From contig CAVPVX010000002.1 in the NCBI GenBank assembly GCA_963709345.1, positions 96,001 to 160,000 of the forward strand: DNA of 64,000 nt. The letters run 5' to 3'. The notes below the pieces were generated by a model. The model was not told the origin of the DNA and searched no databases. It was given only the letters and a program-made list of their open reading frames with translations. Below, one piece after another: positions 15,908 to 51,613 of the stretch. Each line of letters opens with the position of its first letter. The first letter of the stretch is position 1. Both the position numbers and the translations under genes were made by a program. Source of the stretch: an uncultured Actinomycetes bacterium (GTDB lineage: Bacteria; Actinomycetota; Thermoleophilia; UBA2241).

Positions 15908-16282
15908 TCACTCCGGCAGGTCGAGGCGCAGCTGTCGCGCGCCGTGCAGGTAGACGTGGTGGACGGCCCGGTCCCGAGGCACGTACACGTGCATGAGCAC
16001 CCGGATGCAGCGCTCGATCGCGCCGTCGACCACGATCTCCTGGCAGCAGAGCAGAGGAGTCTCCGAGAGGCCGACGCCCCGCGCCGCCGCGGCGGGGAAG
16101 CCGGCGCGAAGGTCCGGCGTGGCGCTGAAGATCGCACTGACGACCTCGTCGACCGCGAGCCCGTTGCGCTCCAGGATCGCCGTGACGAGCTCACCGGTGC
16201 GATAGCCGATGGCATCGCTCGTGTCACGGACGACGGTCGTCGCGCCGCGGATCGCGCGGAGTCGCTCCGAGGATTCGGTCAT
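15908..16282 (-). CDS. aroH: AroH-type chorismate mutase
   Basis: RAIRGATT, FPAAAAR, CIRVLMH and VYLHGARQLRLDL motifs. Confidence 0.93.
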   Translation of the reverse strand: MTESSERLRAIRGATTVVRDTSDAIGYRTGELVTAILERNGLAVDEVVSAIFSATPDLRAGFPAAAARGVGLSETPLLCCQEIVVDGAIERCIRVLMHVYVPRDRAVHHVYLHGARQLRLDLPE

Positions 16283-16312
16283 GTGGGAAGAGGGCGCATA
16301 GGGAACGAAAGA

Positions 16313-17137
16313 CTATACACCCGCAAGACCTTCGTCCGCGGCTTCGACGGGCGCGGCTTCGGCAGCCAGCGGCACCGGTGGCCCCTCCACCTCCTGCGAG
16401 ACCTCGCCGTCGACCGACTCACCGGCGCGGCGCAACGACTCGACCTCCTCGGCCGACAGCTGACGGTGTCCACCGGGCTCGAGGCCCTTGTCGGTCAGCG
16501 TGCCGTACCGGCGGCGGCTCAACTCCTCGACCGGCAGGCCCACAGCCGCGAACATGCGCCTGACCTGGCGCTTGCGACCCTCGTGGATGGTGAGCTCTAC
16601 CAGCGCCGTCTTCGCGCTCTGCTTCCTGAGCTTGGCGTCCGCGGGTGCGGTCGGCCCGTCTTCCAGGTCGACTCCCTGGCGGAGCGTGCCCAGTGCCCGG
16701 CGGCTGACCTTGCCACGCACCCGCGCGACGTAGGTCTTGGGGACGCCGTAGCGTGGGTGCATGAGCTGGTTCGCCAGCACGCCGTCGTTCGTCAGAATGA
16801 TGAGGCCGGTCGTATCGACGTCGAGGCGCCCGACTGGGAACAGCGCCCGGCCGCCGGGGACCATGTCGACGATGACCTTCTCGGCGTGGGGGTCGCTGCG
16901 CGTGCTGGCCACGCCGCGCGGCTTGTTGACGAGGACGTAGCGCAGCTCACGAGCCTCGACCGGCTCGCCGCGCACGGCGACGACGTCGTCAGCGCCGACC
17001 TTCTGGCGCGGGAAGGTGACCACTTCGTCGTTCACGGTCACGACTCCCTCGCGGATCAGCTCATCGCACGAGCGCCGGGAGCCGACTCCCGAGCGAGCGA
17101 GGAACACGACCAGATTCATTGGCTGGGCGGGGCTCAT
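16313..17137 (-). CDS. rluB: 23S rRNA pseudouridine synthase (RluB/RsuA family)
   Basis: S4 domain plus NKPRG, PVGRLDVDTTGL and EGRKRQVRRM motifs. Confidence 0.9.
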   Translation of the reverse strand: MSPAQPMNLVVFLARSGVGSRRSCDELIREGVVTVNDEVVTFPRQKVGADDVVAVRGEPVEARELRYVLVNKPRGVASTRSDPHAEKVIVDMVPGGRALFPVGRLDVDTTGLIILTNDGVLANQLMHPRYGVPKTYVARVRGKVSRRALGTLRQGVDLEDGPTAPADAKLRKQSAKTALVELTIHEGRKRQVRRMFAAVGLPVEELSRRRYGTLTDKGLEPGGHRQLSAEEVESLRRAGESVDGEVSQEVEGPPVPLAAEAAPVEAADEGLAGV

Positions 17138-17709
17138 AGCCCTCTCCTCTCAGCGTTGGCGTGGAGGCGTGAGCGGATCTCCTCTACCTCGTCCGCGCGC
17201 AGGGCGAACTCTTCGAGCGGCGGCAGCTCCGCACGGCCGGACAAACCGAAGAGCTTCAGGAAGCGTTCTCCCGTGCCGTACAGGATCGGCGCTCCCGGGG
17301 TGCCGGCCCGGCCCTGCTGCTCGACCAGGCCGCGCTCTTCCAGCGACCCGAGCGCCCACTCCGACGAGACGCCCCGTACCTCGGCGATCTCTGCCCGCGT
17401 GAGCGGCTCGAGATAGGCGACCACGGCGAGCGTCTCGAGCAGCGCGGGGCTCAGATCCTCCGGTCGCTCAGCGCCGGTGAGGCGCCGTACGTCTTCCGCG
17501 CACTCCTCGGTGACCGCGAACGTCACGCCACCGGCAATGTCCCGCACAAGAAGCCCGTGGCGACCTGCGGCGTACTCCTCGCGCAGCTCCGCGAGGGCCT
17601 CCGCGACGTCGTCCTCTGAACGCTCGCAGGCCGCGGCCAGACGAGCGACCGAAAGAGGACGCGATGATATGAAGAGGAGCGCCTCGAGGCGCGTGGTGAG
17701 CGATCGCAT
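17134..17709 (-). CDS. scpB: SMC-Scp complex subunit ScpB
   Basis: LEALLF, LSPALLETLAVVAY.EPLTRAEI.EVRGV and YGTGERFL.LFGL motifs. Confidence 0.94.
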   Translation of the reverse strand: MRSLTTRLEALLFISSRPLSVARLAAACERSEDDVAEALAELREEYAAGRHGLLVRDIAGGVTFAVTEECAEDVRRLTGAERPEDLSPALLETLAVVAYLEPLTRAEIAEVRGVSSEWALGSLEERGLVEQQGRAGTPGAPILYGTGERFLKLFGLSGRAELPPLEEFALRADEVEEIRSRLHANAERRGL

Positions 17710-17767: not shown

Positions 17768-18586
17768 TCACCCGGTGGCGACGGCGGCCCTGCTGACGAA
17801 GATATCGCCGAAGTGCCGCGTCTGCCGGAGGCGAGCCTCGCCGGCGGAATGCAGTTCCAGCAGAGCGAAGAAGGTGACGGCTCGCTCGAGCCTGTCCGCA
17901 GGCGCCACCTCGGCGAACGTGAACTCGCCCTCGTCGCAGAGGATCAGCCGCAGCCGGCGAAGCTCCTTCACGAGCGAGACGGCGAGATCGGCCAGGTGGC
18001 TCGTATCCGGCACGGGCGGCTCGCGCAGGAGCGGCGCCAGCGCGTCGCCCAGCGCCTGCGCCGGCAGCGCGCCTTCTGCGGCCGGCCGGCGCAGGAGCTC
18101 AGCCGGCACCGGCACACCCCGATACAGCCTGCCGCTGTGCTCGTCCCAGCGAGCGCGCAGGCCTACGGCCGCGGCGCGGAACTGGCTATAGCGCACGAGA
18201 CGCTCGAGGAGCTGCCGCGCGGCCTCGTCCGGGTCGAGATCATCGAACTGCTCCTCGACGTCCTCTTCCAGAAGGAGCCGCGACTTCATCTCGAGCAGGG
18301 CGGCGACGAGCACGACGAACTGCGAGGTGGCGTCGAGATCGAACTCGCCGCTGTCGGCAAGCCGCAGCACGTACTCGGCGATGATGCGCGAGACGCGCAC
18401 CTCCCAGATGTCGATCTCGTCACGCAGGATAAGCGTGACCAGCAGATCGAACGGACCGTCGAAGACGTCGAGGTCGAGGTCGAATGAGCGGCGATCCTGC
18501 GGCGCCCCGCTCGCCGGTTCGCCTGCGGCGGCCAGTCCGACAGGCGGTGTGGCGACGGCGCTCGCTTCAGCGCGCATCGCCGTCAC
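17768..18586 (-). CDS. scpA: Segregation and condensation protein ScpA (kleisin)
   Basis: FDGPFDLLVTLI, AALLEMKSRLLL, TFFALLEL and Q.RHFGDI motifs. Confidence 0.93.
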   Translation of the reverse strand: MTAMRAEASAVATPPVGLAAAGEPASGAPQDRRSFDLDLDVFDGPFDLLVTLILRDEIDIWEVRVSRIIAEYVLRLADSGEFDLDATSQFVVLVAALLEMKSRLLLEEDVEEQFDDLDPDEAARQLLERLVRYSQFRAAAVGLRARWDEHSGRLYRGVPVPAELLRRPAAEGALPAQALGDALAPLLREPPVPDTSHLADLAVSLVKELRRLRLILCDEGEFTFAEVAPADRLERAVTFFALLELHSAGEARLRQTRHFGDIFVSRAAVATG

Positions 18587-18686: not shown

Positions 18687-19880
18687 TCATTTCTCGGGCT
18701 GATTCACAAAGGACGGGATGTCGAAGGCTCCGCTCTCGAAGTCCGGCGCGGGACCGAAGGGTGTGCCCCGGTCTTCCGCGGGCTCCCGCGGCGCGGCCCG
18801 CCCTGCGGGGGGATCAGCGGACGGCGGCGCCGTGCGCGCCGCCTCCTCTCCGAAACCGGTGGCCACGACGGTGATCGAGATCTTGCCCTCGAGACGCTCG
18901 TCCACGACGGCGCCGAAGATGATGTTGGCGTCGTCGTCGGCGGCCTCGCTGATGACTCCTGCCGCCTCGTTCACCTCGTAAAGCGTCAGATCCTCGCCGC
19001 CGGTGATGTTGAGCAGCAGCCCCCGCGCGCCGTCGATGCTCGTCTCGAGCAGCGGCGAGTTGATCGCCATGTCGGCGGCGGCCTGGGCGCGGTTCTCGCC
19101 GCCGGCGACGCCGATGCCGAGAAGCGCCGTCCCGGCGTCGTGGACGATGGTCCGAACGTCCGCGAAGTCGAGGTTGATGAGGCCGGGCACGGTGATGAGA
19201 TCCGTGATCCCCTGCACGCCCTGGCGCAGGATGTCGTCGGCGTGCTGGAACGCCTCCACGACGCTCGTGTTGCGCTCGACCACCTCGAGCAGCCGGTCGT
19301 TGGGGATCGCGATCACTGTGTCCGCGGCCGCGCGAAGCGCCAAGATGCCCTCGGCGGCCTGTCGCTGGCGGCGGTTGCCCTCGAAGCCGAAGGGCCGGGT
19401 GACGATGGCAATGGTGACCGCACCGAGCTCGCCCGCGACCTGCGCCACGACCGGCGACCCTCCGGTGCCGGTCCCCCCACCTTCGCCGGCGGTGACGAAG
19501 ACCAGGTCGGCGCCGCGCAGCGCCGTCTTCAGCTGGTCGCGGCTGATCTCCATGGCCTCGCGCCCGACCTCCGGGTCGGCGCCCCCGCCGAGGCCGTGAG
19601 TGAGCTCCTGGCCGATGTGGATCTTGACATCGGCGTCACACACGTCGAGCTGCTGAACGTCGGTGTTGACGGCGATGAACTCGACGCCCTTCACGCCCGA
19701 GTCGACCATGCGGTTGATGGCGTTCGTGCCGGCCCCGCCGATGCCCACGACCTTGATGCTGGTGACGTACGGGCGACCCTTGACCGGCGCGTCGGTCCCC
19801 GCGTCGGGAACAGTACCGCCGCTGTCCGTGCGCCGGAAGAGCTCGCTCAGTCCATCCTTCATGCTAGGACGATCTGCCAT
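18687..19880 (-). CDS. ftsZ: Cell division protein FtsZ with a ~38-aa N-terminal extension
   Basis: [24 protein letters not shown] tubulin signature, T7 loop NLDFADV and C-terminal conserved peptide FDIPSF. ATG 19880 follows a GGAGG SD. Confidence 0.97.
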
Positions 19881-20622
19881 TGAGCACCTCCCGCGCGAGG
19901 GCACGGTACGCTTCTGCTCCCCTGCCGGTTGGATCGTACTTGAGGACCGAGGCCCCCGTCACGGGCGCCTCGGCGAACTTGATGGTCTTGCGCACCACCG
20001 TGTCGAAGACGAGGTCGCCGAAGTTCTCGCGCAGGACCTCGATCGACTCCCTGCCGTGCAGCGTACACGCGTCGAAGAGCGTCGGTAAGATGCCCTTGAT
20101 GCGCACCTCGGGATTGAGATTCTCGCGGATCATCTCGAGCGTCCGCTCCAGCTGCAACAGCCCGCGCAGCGAGAGGTACTCGCACTGGACGGGCACGATG
20201 ACTCCTTCGGATGCAGTGAGCGCGTTGATGGTGAGCAGGCCGAGGCTCGGGGGCGTGTCGATCAGGATGTAGTCGTAGCGCTCACGTACCGCGTCGAGGG
20301 CGCGCTGCAGAGCCCGCTCGCGCCCGATCATCGTCGCCAGCGCCATCTCGGCGCCGGCCAGGTCGATCGTGGAGGCGGCGACGTCGAGTTCGCGCTCGTA
20401 GATGACGTCCTCGATGGGCGTACGATGCACGAGCACGTCGTACATGCTCTTCTCGAGGTCCTCGGTGTCGATGCCCTGACTCATCGTCAGGTTGCCCTGC
20501 GGGTCCATGTCGACCGCGAGCACGCGCAGATCGTGCTCCCGGAGGGCCGCGCCGAGGTTCACCGTCGAGGTGGTCTTCGCCACCCCGCCCTTCTGATTGG
20601 CGAACGCGATGACATGCGCCAT
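19864..20622 (-). CDS. Soj/ParA-family ATPase (orphan; no adjacent parB)
   Basis: Deviant Walker [41 protein letters not shown] and FAEAP motifs. Confidence 0.94.
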
Positions 20623-50569: not shown

Positions 50570-51613
50570 CTACCGGCCCCGCGGCCGGGAGTTGCGCTTG
50601 CTCTTGACGAGGACATCGAACTCCTCGAGGTACTTGCCGGATCCGACGGCTACGCAGGTGAGCGGCGATTCCGCTAGATGTACCGGCATCTGGGTCTCTT
50701 CGCGCAGGCGCTCGGGGAGCCCCTGCAGCAGCGAGCCGCCGCCGGCGAGCATGATGCCGCGGTCCATGATGTCGCTGGCGAGCTCCGGAGGTGTCTTGTC
50801 GAGCGTCGCCTTGATCGCGTCGATGATCGCCTGTGTCGGCTCCTCAAGGGCGGCCCGCACCTCTTCAGACGACAGGACGATGGTCTTGGGCAGGCCGGTG
50901 ACGAGATCGCGACCGCGGATCTCGGCCTGCTCCTCCTGTGGCAGCGGGTAGGCCGAGCCGATCTCAAGCTTGATCTCCTCCGACGTCTGGCTGCCGATGA
51001 GGAGCTTGTACTCCTTCTTGACGTAGCTGATGATCGCCTCGTCGAGCTCGTCGCCGCCGACCCGGATCGACTGGCTGACGACGATGCCGCCGAGGGAGAT
51101 CACGGCCACTTCGCTGGTGCCGCCGCCGATGTCGACGATCATGCTCCCGGTGGGCTCGGCGACCGGAAGGCCGGCGCCGATAGCGGCGGCCATCGGCTCC
51201 TCGATCAGGGTCGCCCAGCGGGCGCCGGCCGAGTAGGTCGCCTCCTCGACGGCGCGTTTCTCGACGCCGGTGACACCGCTGGGCACGCAGATGACCACGC
51301 GCGGGTGCGCCCAGCGGTTCTGCATGACCTTGCGGATGAAGTGACGGAGCATCTGCTCCGTGATGTCGAAGTCGGCGATGACGCCGTCTTTGAGCGGCCG
51401 CACGGCGCTGATCGTCGCCGGCGTGCGGCCGAGCATGCGCTTGGCCTCCCCGCCGACGGCGTGGACCTCGCCGCTGCGGTGGTCGATGGCGACGACGGAC
51501 GGCTCGCTGAGCACGATGCCGCGGCCGCGGAGATAGACGAGCGTATTGGCGGTTCCGAGATCCACCGCCATGTCGCGGGCGCCGAAGCCCGTCACGAAGC
51601 CGAGGAAGCTGAT
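50570..51613 (-). CDS. mreB: Actin-like MreB (probable non-canonical ATC start)
   Basis: [33 protein letters not shown] and GGGSLL motifs. AAAGGAG SD 6 nt before an in-frame ATC. Confidence 0.96.

Follow-up and report, generated by a model that had tools for sequence, protein, structure and literature searches.

We analysed a 64,000-nucleotide (nt) stretch of DNA from an uncultured Actinomycetes bacterium (Thermoleophilia; UBA2241; GenBank assembly GCA_963709345.1, contig CAVPVX010000002.1, positions 96,001 to 160,000), here called the window, in which a second FtsZ gene (ftsZ2) lies directly behind the gene for a ParA/PldP-type ATPase (parA2). We consider it probable that residues 1–19 of FtsZ2 form a partner tag for this upstream-encoded ATPase, carried on a disordered tether, and the arrangement suggests that ParA2 positions FtsZ directly. 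The principal evidence is the conservation of the tag and of the gene pair across the class, together with the occurrence of a related tag on a small protein that is encoded behind ParA2-type genes in other Actinomycetota. The features concerned are as follows.

19864..20622, minus strand: parA2, ParA/PldP-type deviant Walker A ATPase, 252 amino acids (aa) (Pfam AAA_31, CbiA, weak MipZ)
18687..19880, minus strand: ftsZ2, intact gene for the second FtsZ, 397 aa and a stop codon (open reading frame (ORF) translation and Pfam)
19824..19880, minus strand: FtsZ2 N-terminal tag, residues 1–19, candidate ParA2-partner peptide (translation, conservation, hhalign)
19758..19823, minus strand: variable G/P/T/D-rich tether, FtsZ2 residues 20–41 (unconserved across families; low confidence (pLDDT) in the AlphaFold2 (AF2) model)
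18705..18722, minus strand: FtsZ2 C-terminal peptide DIPSFV (translation)
19885..19892, minus strand: Shine–Dalgarno-like GGGAGGTG serving ftsZ2, within the last parA2 codons (sequence)

A second FtsZ encoded behind parA2

The initial annotation had described about 38 residues ahead of the GTPase fold, including a G/P/T/D-rich linker. The ORF translation agrees: positions 19767–19880 on the minus strand encode FtsZ2 residues 1–38, and the GTPase core begins at residue 42. Pfam assigns the tubulin/FtsZ GTPase domain (PF00091) to residues 41–201 (E = 6.1e-45) and FtsZ_C (PF12327) to residues 250–343 (E = 4.5e-34). The GTP-binding GGGTGTG box (G134–G140) and the T7-loop NxDxAD residues N236, D238, A240 and D241 are invariant across 21 FtsZ2 orthologues. 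The terminal DIPSFV resembles what we take to be the anchor-binding motif of FtsZ C-termini; a (D/E)(I/L/V)PxF-type C-terminus occurs on FtsZ1 in 16 of 16 genomes and on FtsZ2 in most families, and is absent from three FtsZ2 sequences of one family (f2). Given that all GTP-binding and T7-loop residues are kept and that most families retain the C-terminal peptide, FtsZ2 is probably a polymerising FtsZ that is able to use the same anchors as FtsZ1.

The source genome (3.11 Mb, 11 contigs) has two FtsZ genes in total. FtsZ1 (362 aa) is 65% identical to FtsZ2 in an alignment that begins at FtsZ2 residue 37, and it has no such N-terminal extension. Its gene lies behind murG-murC-ftsQ in the division and cell wall (dcw) cluster, about 180 kb from ftsZ2, and so holds the position that is typical, if not obligatory, for FtsZ; ftsZ2 lies outside that cluster, 3' of parA2. 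Because the other copy occupies the dcw cluster, we regard ftsZ2 as the paralogue. FtsZ2 sequences form one clade (SH-like approximate likelihood ratio test (SH-aLRT) support of 96) on branches longer than those of FtsZ1. The outgroups of this tree are poor (five rows, two of them on long branches and one a mislabelled relative inside FtsZ1), so the claim is limited to a single FtsZ2 clade and extends to no date for the duplication.

The end of parA2 and the start of ftsZ2 share 17 nt, and the ftsZ2 Shine–Dalgarno sequence lies inside parA2. Upstream of the ATG at 19880 stands GGGAGGTG, with its GGAGG core at a distance of 6 nt; neither of the alternative starts, GTG at 19904 and ATG at 19862, has a comparable site. 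A GGAGG-like sequence is equally placed in the codons for the ParA C-terminal 'AREVL' in most of 21 orthologous loci. The ATG at 19880 is, on this sequence evidence, the likely start of ftsZ2.

The 40 related genomes include 16 from six other families of the class, and each of these 16 carries one FtsZ gene behind murC and a second directly behind a ParA-like gene. A further 16 of 16 class genomes of other genera have a ParA gene immediately 5' of FtsZ2 (in one, the contig ends just past the ParA gene), so that 32 of 32 genomes of other genera keep the adjacency; in every class genome examined, the tagged gene is also coupled in translation to the ParA-like gene ahead of it. The relatives that match at 78–87% identity are found among public metagenome-assembled genomes labelled Thermoleophilia. 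Within the genus, an FtsZ2-type match occurs in 23 of 24 genomes, and ParA2 is directly 5' of FtsZ2 in all 18 loci that reach that far, from 19 fetched (L004–L022; L021 ends within ftsZ2). The genus keeps the order parA2-ftsZ2-scpA-scpB. Elsewhere in the class the genes 3' of ftsZ2 vary by family (gamma-glutamyltranspeptidase, YdjC or an aminotransferase), and scpAB is found there in this genus only. Because these downstream genes differ between families, we treat parA2-ftsZ2 as the conserved unit. Tallies of the FtsZ2 tag, ParA2 and the small protein described below include genomes flagged as unpublished, which the alignments and trees exclude.

A conserved tag shared with a small protein

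A conserved island followed by a variable linker had been anticipated, and the family alignments bear this out. L11, L14 and F15 are invariant and S6 is nearly so among 17 FtsZ2 sequences from 7 families; R4, S6 and M7 are nearly invariant among 21 sequences; and position 8 is K or R in all sequences displayed. The consensus is M-x-(R/K)-R-A-S-M-R-E-G-P-L-(A/S)-(E/D)-L-F-R-x-T, and the tag is present in all eight sampled families of the class, f8 being the eighth. Most families have four or five basic residues per tag; R4 is nearly invariant and K/R8 is conserved. In 20 sequences of the genus, codons 10, 11 and 14–18 vary only synonymously, and residue changes start at positions 19–20; the tag is therefore translated and under purifying selection as protein. 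The tether has no conservation across families, and the distance from the motif to the GxGGxGxN box is about 25–31 residues at its shortest and about 170–180 at its longest. The AF2 model of FtsZ2 has a confident core and a disordered tail, with a low-confidence helix at residues 7–16, pLDDT below 50 for residues 16–37, and the peptide undocked from the core. FtsZ2 shares this layout, a conserved peptide at the extreme N-terminus of a disordered tether, with the partner tails of ParA/MinD ATPases.

A 40-column profile of the FtsZ2 N-terminus gave a single match in each of 32 class genomes (E = 5e-16 to 6e-9 per genome), as the predicted conservation in orthologues would have it, and no match in 369 genomes from other classes of the phylum; a weak additional match in one genome contains stops. 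Such recurrence far exceeds chance. On the source genome, a hidden Markov model (HMM) of the motif scores FtsZ2 only (34.6 bits), the next matches reaching at most 9 bits. Against a database of 5.8 billion proteins, the N-terminus profile retrieved 7781 proteins at E <= 0.01. Among the 120 of these that were listed, 42 have FtsZ domains, 1 is a ParA read-through and 77 are short and without a Pfam domain. We inspected 19 of the 120: 14 short proteins without Pfam domains, 2 ParA-tail read-throughs, 2 full-length FtsZ2 proteins and 1 protein of 298 aa. The 14 short ones look like FtsZ2 N-termini that are frameshifted or cut by contig ends, and one of them (P0011) ends with an out-of-frame copy of the GTPase start; we accordingly discarded them as genuine small tagged proteins of the class.

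Outside the class, the tag has a counterpart. We searched for the window ParA in 50 other genomes of the phylum and fetched the surroundings of 20 of the strongest matches from other classes, excluding genomes flagged as unpublished. Seven of these loci are soj-parB pairs and 13 have ParA2-type genes. Small ORFs (113–165 aa) right after ParA2 genes start with (M/V)SRRASLPGA(D/E)ELFRxT. The initial annotation had pointed to 'ELFR'-containing small proteins just 3' of orphan ParAs, and other Actinomycetota do have proteins beginning MSRRASLPGADELFRxT behind their ParA2/PldP-type genes. The family lacks a Pfam model and comprises at least 8000 sequence clusters, whose listed names are all 'hypothetical protein', many from Streptomyces; the start motif is present in all 120 relatives among the matches listed. 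The small protein occurs in 93 of 401 sampled genomes of the phylum (82 of 390 without the 11 that are flagged as unpublished), and a ParA2-type gene lies within 1.5 kb at 26 of the 26 loci fetched by way of it. A tblastn search of 72,556 plasmids with the small protein gave no match.

Likeness of the FtsZ2 tag to these ParA-adjacent proteins, which the earlier reading had proposed to look for, was found. Comparison by hhalign of the FtsZ2 N-terminus (17 sequences) with the small-protein N-terminus (21 loci) gave a probability of 90.7%, E = 1.3e-6 and a score of 23.0 in a 19-column alignment that starts at Met1, whereas the highest score among 300 column shuffles was 17.7. The two tags are homologous at the level of sequence profiles, that of FtsZ2 having one or two extra residues between S-M and E-L-F. 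FtsZ2 shares only the tag, with an FtsZ core in place of the C-terminal domain of the small protein (HDEKITFY...DRGRIVR). The two carriers are complementary in distribution. Each of the 32 class genomes has the FtsZ2 tag and none has the small protein, searched for with a whole-protein profile; of the 369 other genomes, 93 have the small protein and none has the tag.

The AF2 model of the small protein (30 sequences) has a disordered N-terminus and linker followed by a C-terminal domain (residues 57–119, pLDDT above 94) in which a single strand-like segment is combined with two or three helices. In a structural search against representatives, nearly all of the top entries were ribbon-helix-helix (RHH) proteins: TraM (Z = 5.7), ParD2 (4.8) and the PutA RHH domain (4.8), with the pCXC100 partition protein (4.4), omega (3.7) and Arc (3.5) as further RHH neighbours. 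This is consistent with an RHH-like domain, although the similarity is modest. With its disordered N-terminal tail and linker ahead of an RHH-like domain, the modelled small protein appears to have the architecture of a type Ib partition adaptor.

The ATPases of both carriers also group together. Window ParA2 is 43% identical to the parB-linked Soj of its own genome, where a canonical soj-parB pair is present elsewhere, 47–55% identical to ParA2-type genes in other classes and 62–83% identical within the class; no further ParA/MinD relatives were found in the genome at E <= 0.001. In a tree of 64 sequences, made by quick search and with rooting on the parB-linked group assumed, a branch with an SH-aLRT of 99 splits eight parB-linked ParAs from the remainder. 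The 17 FtsZ2-linked ParAs form one clade (98) and the small-protein-linked ParAs another (96, with one scpA-linked row within it). Window ParA2 sits with the FtsZ2-linked and small-protein-linked ParAs, apart from parB-linked Soj.

ParA2 as the candidate partner, and alternatives

ATPases of the ParA/MinD family are activated by partner proteins whose short, positively charged N-terminal extensions are grafted on diverse domains (PMC7993993; bioRxiv 10.1101/2022.06.09.495121). Type Ib partition adaptors such as ParG have flexible N-terminal tails that bind the ATP-bound ParA dimer and activate it; the ParG tail has an arginine-finger-like motif (PMC7308502). By analogy, we infer that the FtsZ2 tag would bind ParA2 and activate its ATPase. 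ParA2–ATP dimers would sit on the nucleoid, and FtsZ2 monomers or filaments would offer them one or many tethered tags, which would bind ParA2 and trigger ATP hydrolysis. As a cargo of ParA, like PomXYZ clusters, carboxysomes and plasmids, FtsZ2 would take its position from the chromosome and, through its intact GTPase core and C-terminal peptide, would seed or steer a Z ring built with FtsZ1. ParA2 might act positively, by placing FtsZ2, or negatively, by keeping it off the nucleoid in the manner of MipZ; the sequence is compatible with both.

The most economical explanation for the shared tag would be its transfer from the RHH-like adaptor to a duplicated FtsZ in this class. We tentatively extend this to a possible class-wide replacement, in which an FtsZ paralogue took the place of the DNA-binding adaptor of a chromosomal ParA2/PldP system, so that a ParA ratchet based on the nucleoid would have the cytokinetic polymer as its cargo and would link chromosome and Z ring directly, with no adaptor. 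By its tag, the small RHH-like protein would then be the partner so far missing for the orphan ParA2/PldP ATPases of Streptomyces and of many further Actinomycetota. In Corynebacterium glutamicum, ParB does not stimulate PldP, the partner of which 'has yet to be identified' (bioRxiv 10.1101/2025.07.02.662783), and a review describes ParA2 (SCO1772) as ubiquitous in actinobacteria.

Several observations weigh against ParA2 as the partner or narrow the grounds for it. An HMM made from six near-identical small-protein 15-mers aligns only ELFRRT of FtsZ2, at about 5.5 bits, and fails to single out the FtsZ2 tag genome-wide. This HMM is too narrow; because it recovers only part of the tag, the homology rests on the profile–profile comparison together with the identical position. 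The tag was also initially likened to the N-terminal motif of ParB/Spo0J, and here the comparison, made with LG(R/K)GLxAL(I/L), failed: the genome's ParB has KKALGKGLGALI near its N-terminus, which can be aligned by eye with the FtsZ2 tag, but hhalign of the tag against six ParB N-termini gave a probability of 3.1% and a score of 10.4, within the shuffle range (mean 7.7, standard deviation 2.3), and the ParB N-terminus is absent among the 9484 rows reported for the FtsZ2-motif HMM against the six-frame genome translation. As the tag is not detectably similar to ParB N-termini, the analogy with ParB is one of architecture only. Known activating tails are positively charged (PMC7993993), and the tag of this genus is approximately neutral (R4, K8, R16 and R17 against D3, D9, E13 and D19). 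One member of the genus (G009, 95% complete) has an FtsZ1-type match only. The Z scores behind the RHH assignment are modest, none being above 5.7, and a Foldseek search of the PDB with the small-protein model returned nothing at E <= 0.001, the best relevant row being 3NO7 (E = 3.9).

A further such point concerns one ParA2 residue:

20065..20067, minus strand: parA2 codon 186, Cys (TGT) where relatives have Arg (alignment)

The site is Arg, in D-x-R-T, in 16 of 17 class representatives and 15 of 16 genus sequences, as it is in RNA-library contigs of relatives, and it aligns with the Arg of 'DGRT' in Thermus thermophilus Soj, which is needed for DNA binding (bioRxiv 10.1101/2025.07.02.662783). 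Because Cys replaces this conserved Arg, ParA2 of this genome may be atypical, or the base call may be wrong. Complex prediction of two ParA2 chains with two ATP and the 40-aa FtsZ2 N-terminus gave 0.34, 0.00 and 0.01 against a mark of 0.32, with no controls folded; these scores count neither way.

The alternative that survives best, although we think it improbable, is that the tag binds another conserved partner, such as SMC–ScpAB, ParB or DNA, and that parA2 and the tagged gene are merely co-expressed in one pathway. The genes scpA-scpB follow ftsZ2 in the genus and the small tagged protein in several other classes, and the mycobacterial ParA2 homologue Rv1708 is reported to interact with ScpA and ParB (PMC10482377). 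However, no ScpA or ScpB match was found in the ftsZ2 loci of the other class families examined, where the 16 downstream ORFs scanned, from 12 such loci, are other genes. ParA2, by contrast, is always adjacent, and the position, the tether and the N-terminal site match the design of ParA/MinD partner tails.

Less likely still is a tag conserved for regulation of FtsZ2 itself, whether as a phosphorylation or degradation signal or as an element that folds back on the core. The R/K-x-S sequence, with its nearly invariant Ser6 behind basic residues, would suit such a role, and conserved N-terminal FtsZ peptides of cyanobacteria act in polymerisation (PMC6175996). Self-regulation, however, leaves the same tag on an unrelated small protein 3' of parA2 unexplained, and AF2 leaves the peptide undocked from the core at pLDDT below 50. 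It could coexist with recognition by ParA2.

Less in keeping with the data, and in our view very unlikely, is an amphipathic membrane-targeting helix that anchors FtsZ2 as well as the small protein. Although L11, L14 and F15 would lie on one face of a short helix that is followed by R16 and R17, on inspection this hydrophobic face comprises three or four residues and is interrupted by conserved acidic residues at 9 and 13, by a Ser that is likewise conserved and by Gly/Pro. The tag also heads a likely DNA-binding RHH-like protein, where a membrane anchor would be unexpected, and FtsZ2 keeps a C-terminal peptide of what we take to be the anchor-binding kind in a genome with two SepF genes. Conservation at the nucleotide level, from the parA2 overlap or translational coupling, would draw on the overlap of ftsZ2 codons 1–6 with the parA2 end, but it is contradicted and most improbable: the motif runs 13 codons past this overlap, with synonymous variation in those codons and unchanged residues, and across families the same residues occur with different codons and overlap lengths.

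Known systems and further observations

Recognition of the tag by ParA2 would place FtsZ2 beside several known systems. Type Ib partition adaptors (ParG of TP228, omega of pSM19035 and ParB of pCXC100) likewise have a short N-terminal peptide on a flexible tail and are encoded just 3' of a small ParA-type ATPase, and the tag carrier of other Actinomycetota is RHH-like as well. They differ in that the carrier here is FtsZ at a chromosomal locus, with no sequence similarity to ParG. The ParB/Spo0J motif shares basic residues, a Gly and L-x-x-L-hydrophobic at a tethered N-terminus, but the similarity is statistically unsupported and the genome has its own Soj–ParB pair.

PldP of C. glutamicum, Rv1708/MSMEG_3743 of mycobacteria and ParA2 (SCO1772) of Streptomyces represent the second, 'orphan' ParA of Actinomycetota, which is implicated in division-site placement. 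The ATPase 5' of ftsZ2 resembles them in grouping with ParAs that are not ParB-linked, and it shares the KGGVAKTT Walker A, T-H-x-R-(D/E) and FAEA with the mycobacterial structure 4PFS. The genus also keeps the parA2...scpA-scpB-rluB neighbourhood of ParA2 loci in other classes: scpA and/or scpB lie within about 2 kb 3' at 6 of the 13 ParA2-type loci, two of which also have rluB, and this parA2...scpA-scpB neighbourhood is that known for PldP, Rv1708 and SCO1772. The difference is that the next gene here is FtsZ, whereas we found no tag-carrying partner described for those organisms in the papers searched.

MinD–MinC, MipZ and PomXYZ also couple a ParA/MinD ATPase to Z-ring placement, and PomX activates PomZ through a 22-residue N-terminal peptide (PMC7993993); there, contact with FtsZ is made by an adaptor or on the FtsZ core. 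Archaeal FtsZ1/FtsZ2 and the FtsZ peptide of heterocystous cyanobacteria offer divided-role FtsZ pairs and lineage-specific N-terminal extensions, but in other lineages, with another peptide and no ParA linkage.

The literature searched yielded nothing on a second or ParA-linked FtsZ in this class, nothing for Streptomyces on the small protein or any partner of ParA2, and no FtsZ that itself carries a ParA/MinD partner tail. If ParA2 does recognize the tag, FtsZ2 would be the first case found of FtsZ itself bearing such a tail, and the idea of a modular tail grafted on any cargo (PMC7993993) would reach the cytoskeleton. To our knowledge, Actinomycetota have neither Min nor the known nucleoid-occlusion factors for placing their division site. 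What looks like a natural fusion in one class points to a ParA2–FtsZ link, and the tag of 15–19 residues marks the widespread, uncharacterised small protein as a likely ParA2 partner elsewhere.

Some FtsZ2 linkers contain additional conserved islands: ...TVEHV(H/Y/P)DF... in family f3 (L035, L045 and L056) and ...RL(R/N)xAFS(A/S)DIPD(N/D)VL... in family f5 (L040 and L060). Family-specific islands also occur in database proteins P0013, P0024, P0030 and P0033, and those of f3 and f5 may be extra short binding motifs. The 298-aa database protein, P0027, combines an FtsZ2-type tag and the f3 linker island with a hydrophobic, membrane-like C-terminal part; because its contig is only 2.8 kb, it may be a chimeric assembly or another cargo.

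Contigs from four RNA-library runs of one study, at a likeness of at least 88%, belong to relatives and not to this organism. A 485-nt contig (two runs, about 89% alike) and a 421-nt contig cross the parA2/ftsZ2 junction, and nine RNA runs contained only 5–6% of sampled words. Such contigs cannot reveal transcript, strand or start, and we therefore take them as no evidence of expression. They have a net 3-nt insertion at window positions 19793–19803, in the linker-coding part, which agrees with in-frame variation in tether length.

ParA2-like genes also form a third subgroup, which branches beside the FtsZ2-linked clade as its sister (SH-aLRT 89). Behind its members lie genes for small zinc-ribbon-like proteins with a different N-terminus, one of which contains ...DPLGKAALFSQ.... 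One genome (G071) carries both a ParA2-like/zinc-ribbon pair and a ParA2/small-RHH pair.

L167:3759-3992, plus strand: zinc-ribbon-like small protein
L171:3846-4139, plus strand: zinc-ribbon-like small protein

The locus order in the window is yajC, parA2, ftsZ2, scpA, scpB, rluB, with the following genes behind ftsZ2.

17768..18586, minus strand: scpA, directly 3' of ftsZ2 (Pfam SMC_ScpA)
17134..17709, minus strand: scpB (Pfam SMC_ScpB)
15908-17137, minus strand: rluB-like pseudouridine synthase (S4 and PseudoU_synth_2) and type I chorismate mutase, 3' of scpB

SepF and the FtsA family (PF14450) are each represented by two matches in the genome, and one FtsA-family match falls inside the window.

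50648-51139, minus strand: FtsA-family (PF14450) match
G000:C7:97143-97637, G000:C2:79733-79948 and C7:741111-741317: remaining SepF/FtsA-family matches

As there are two FtsZ genes, two SepF matches and two FtsA-family matches, several division components may be duplicated in this genome.

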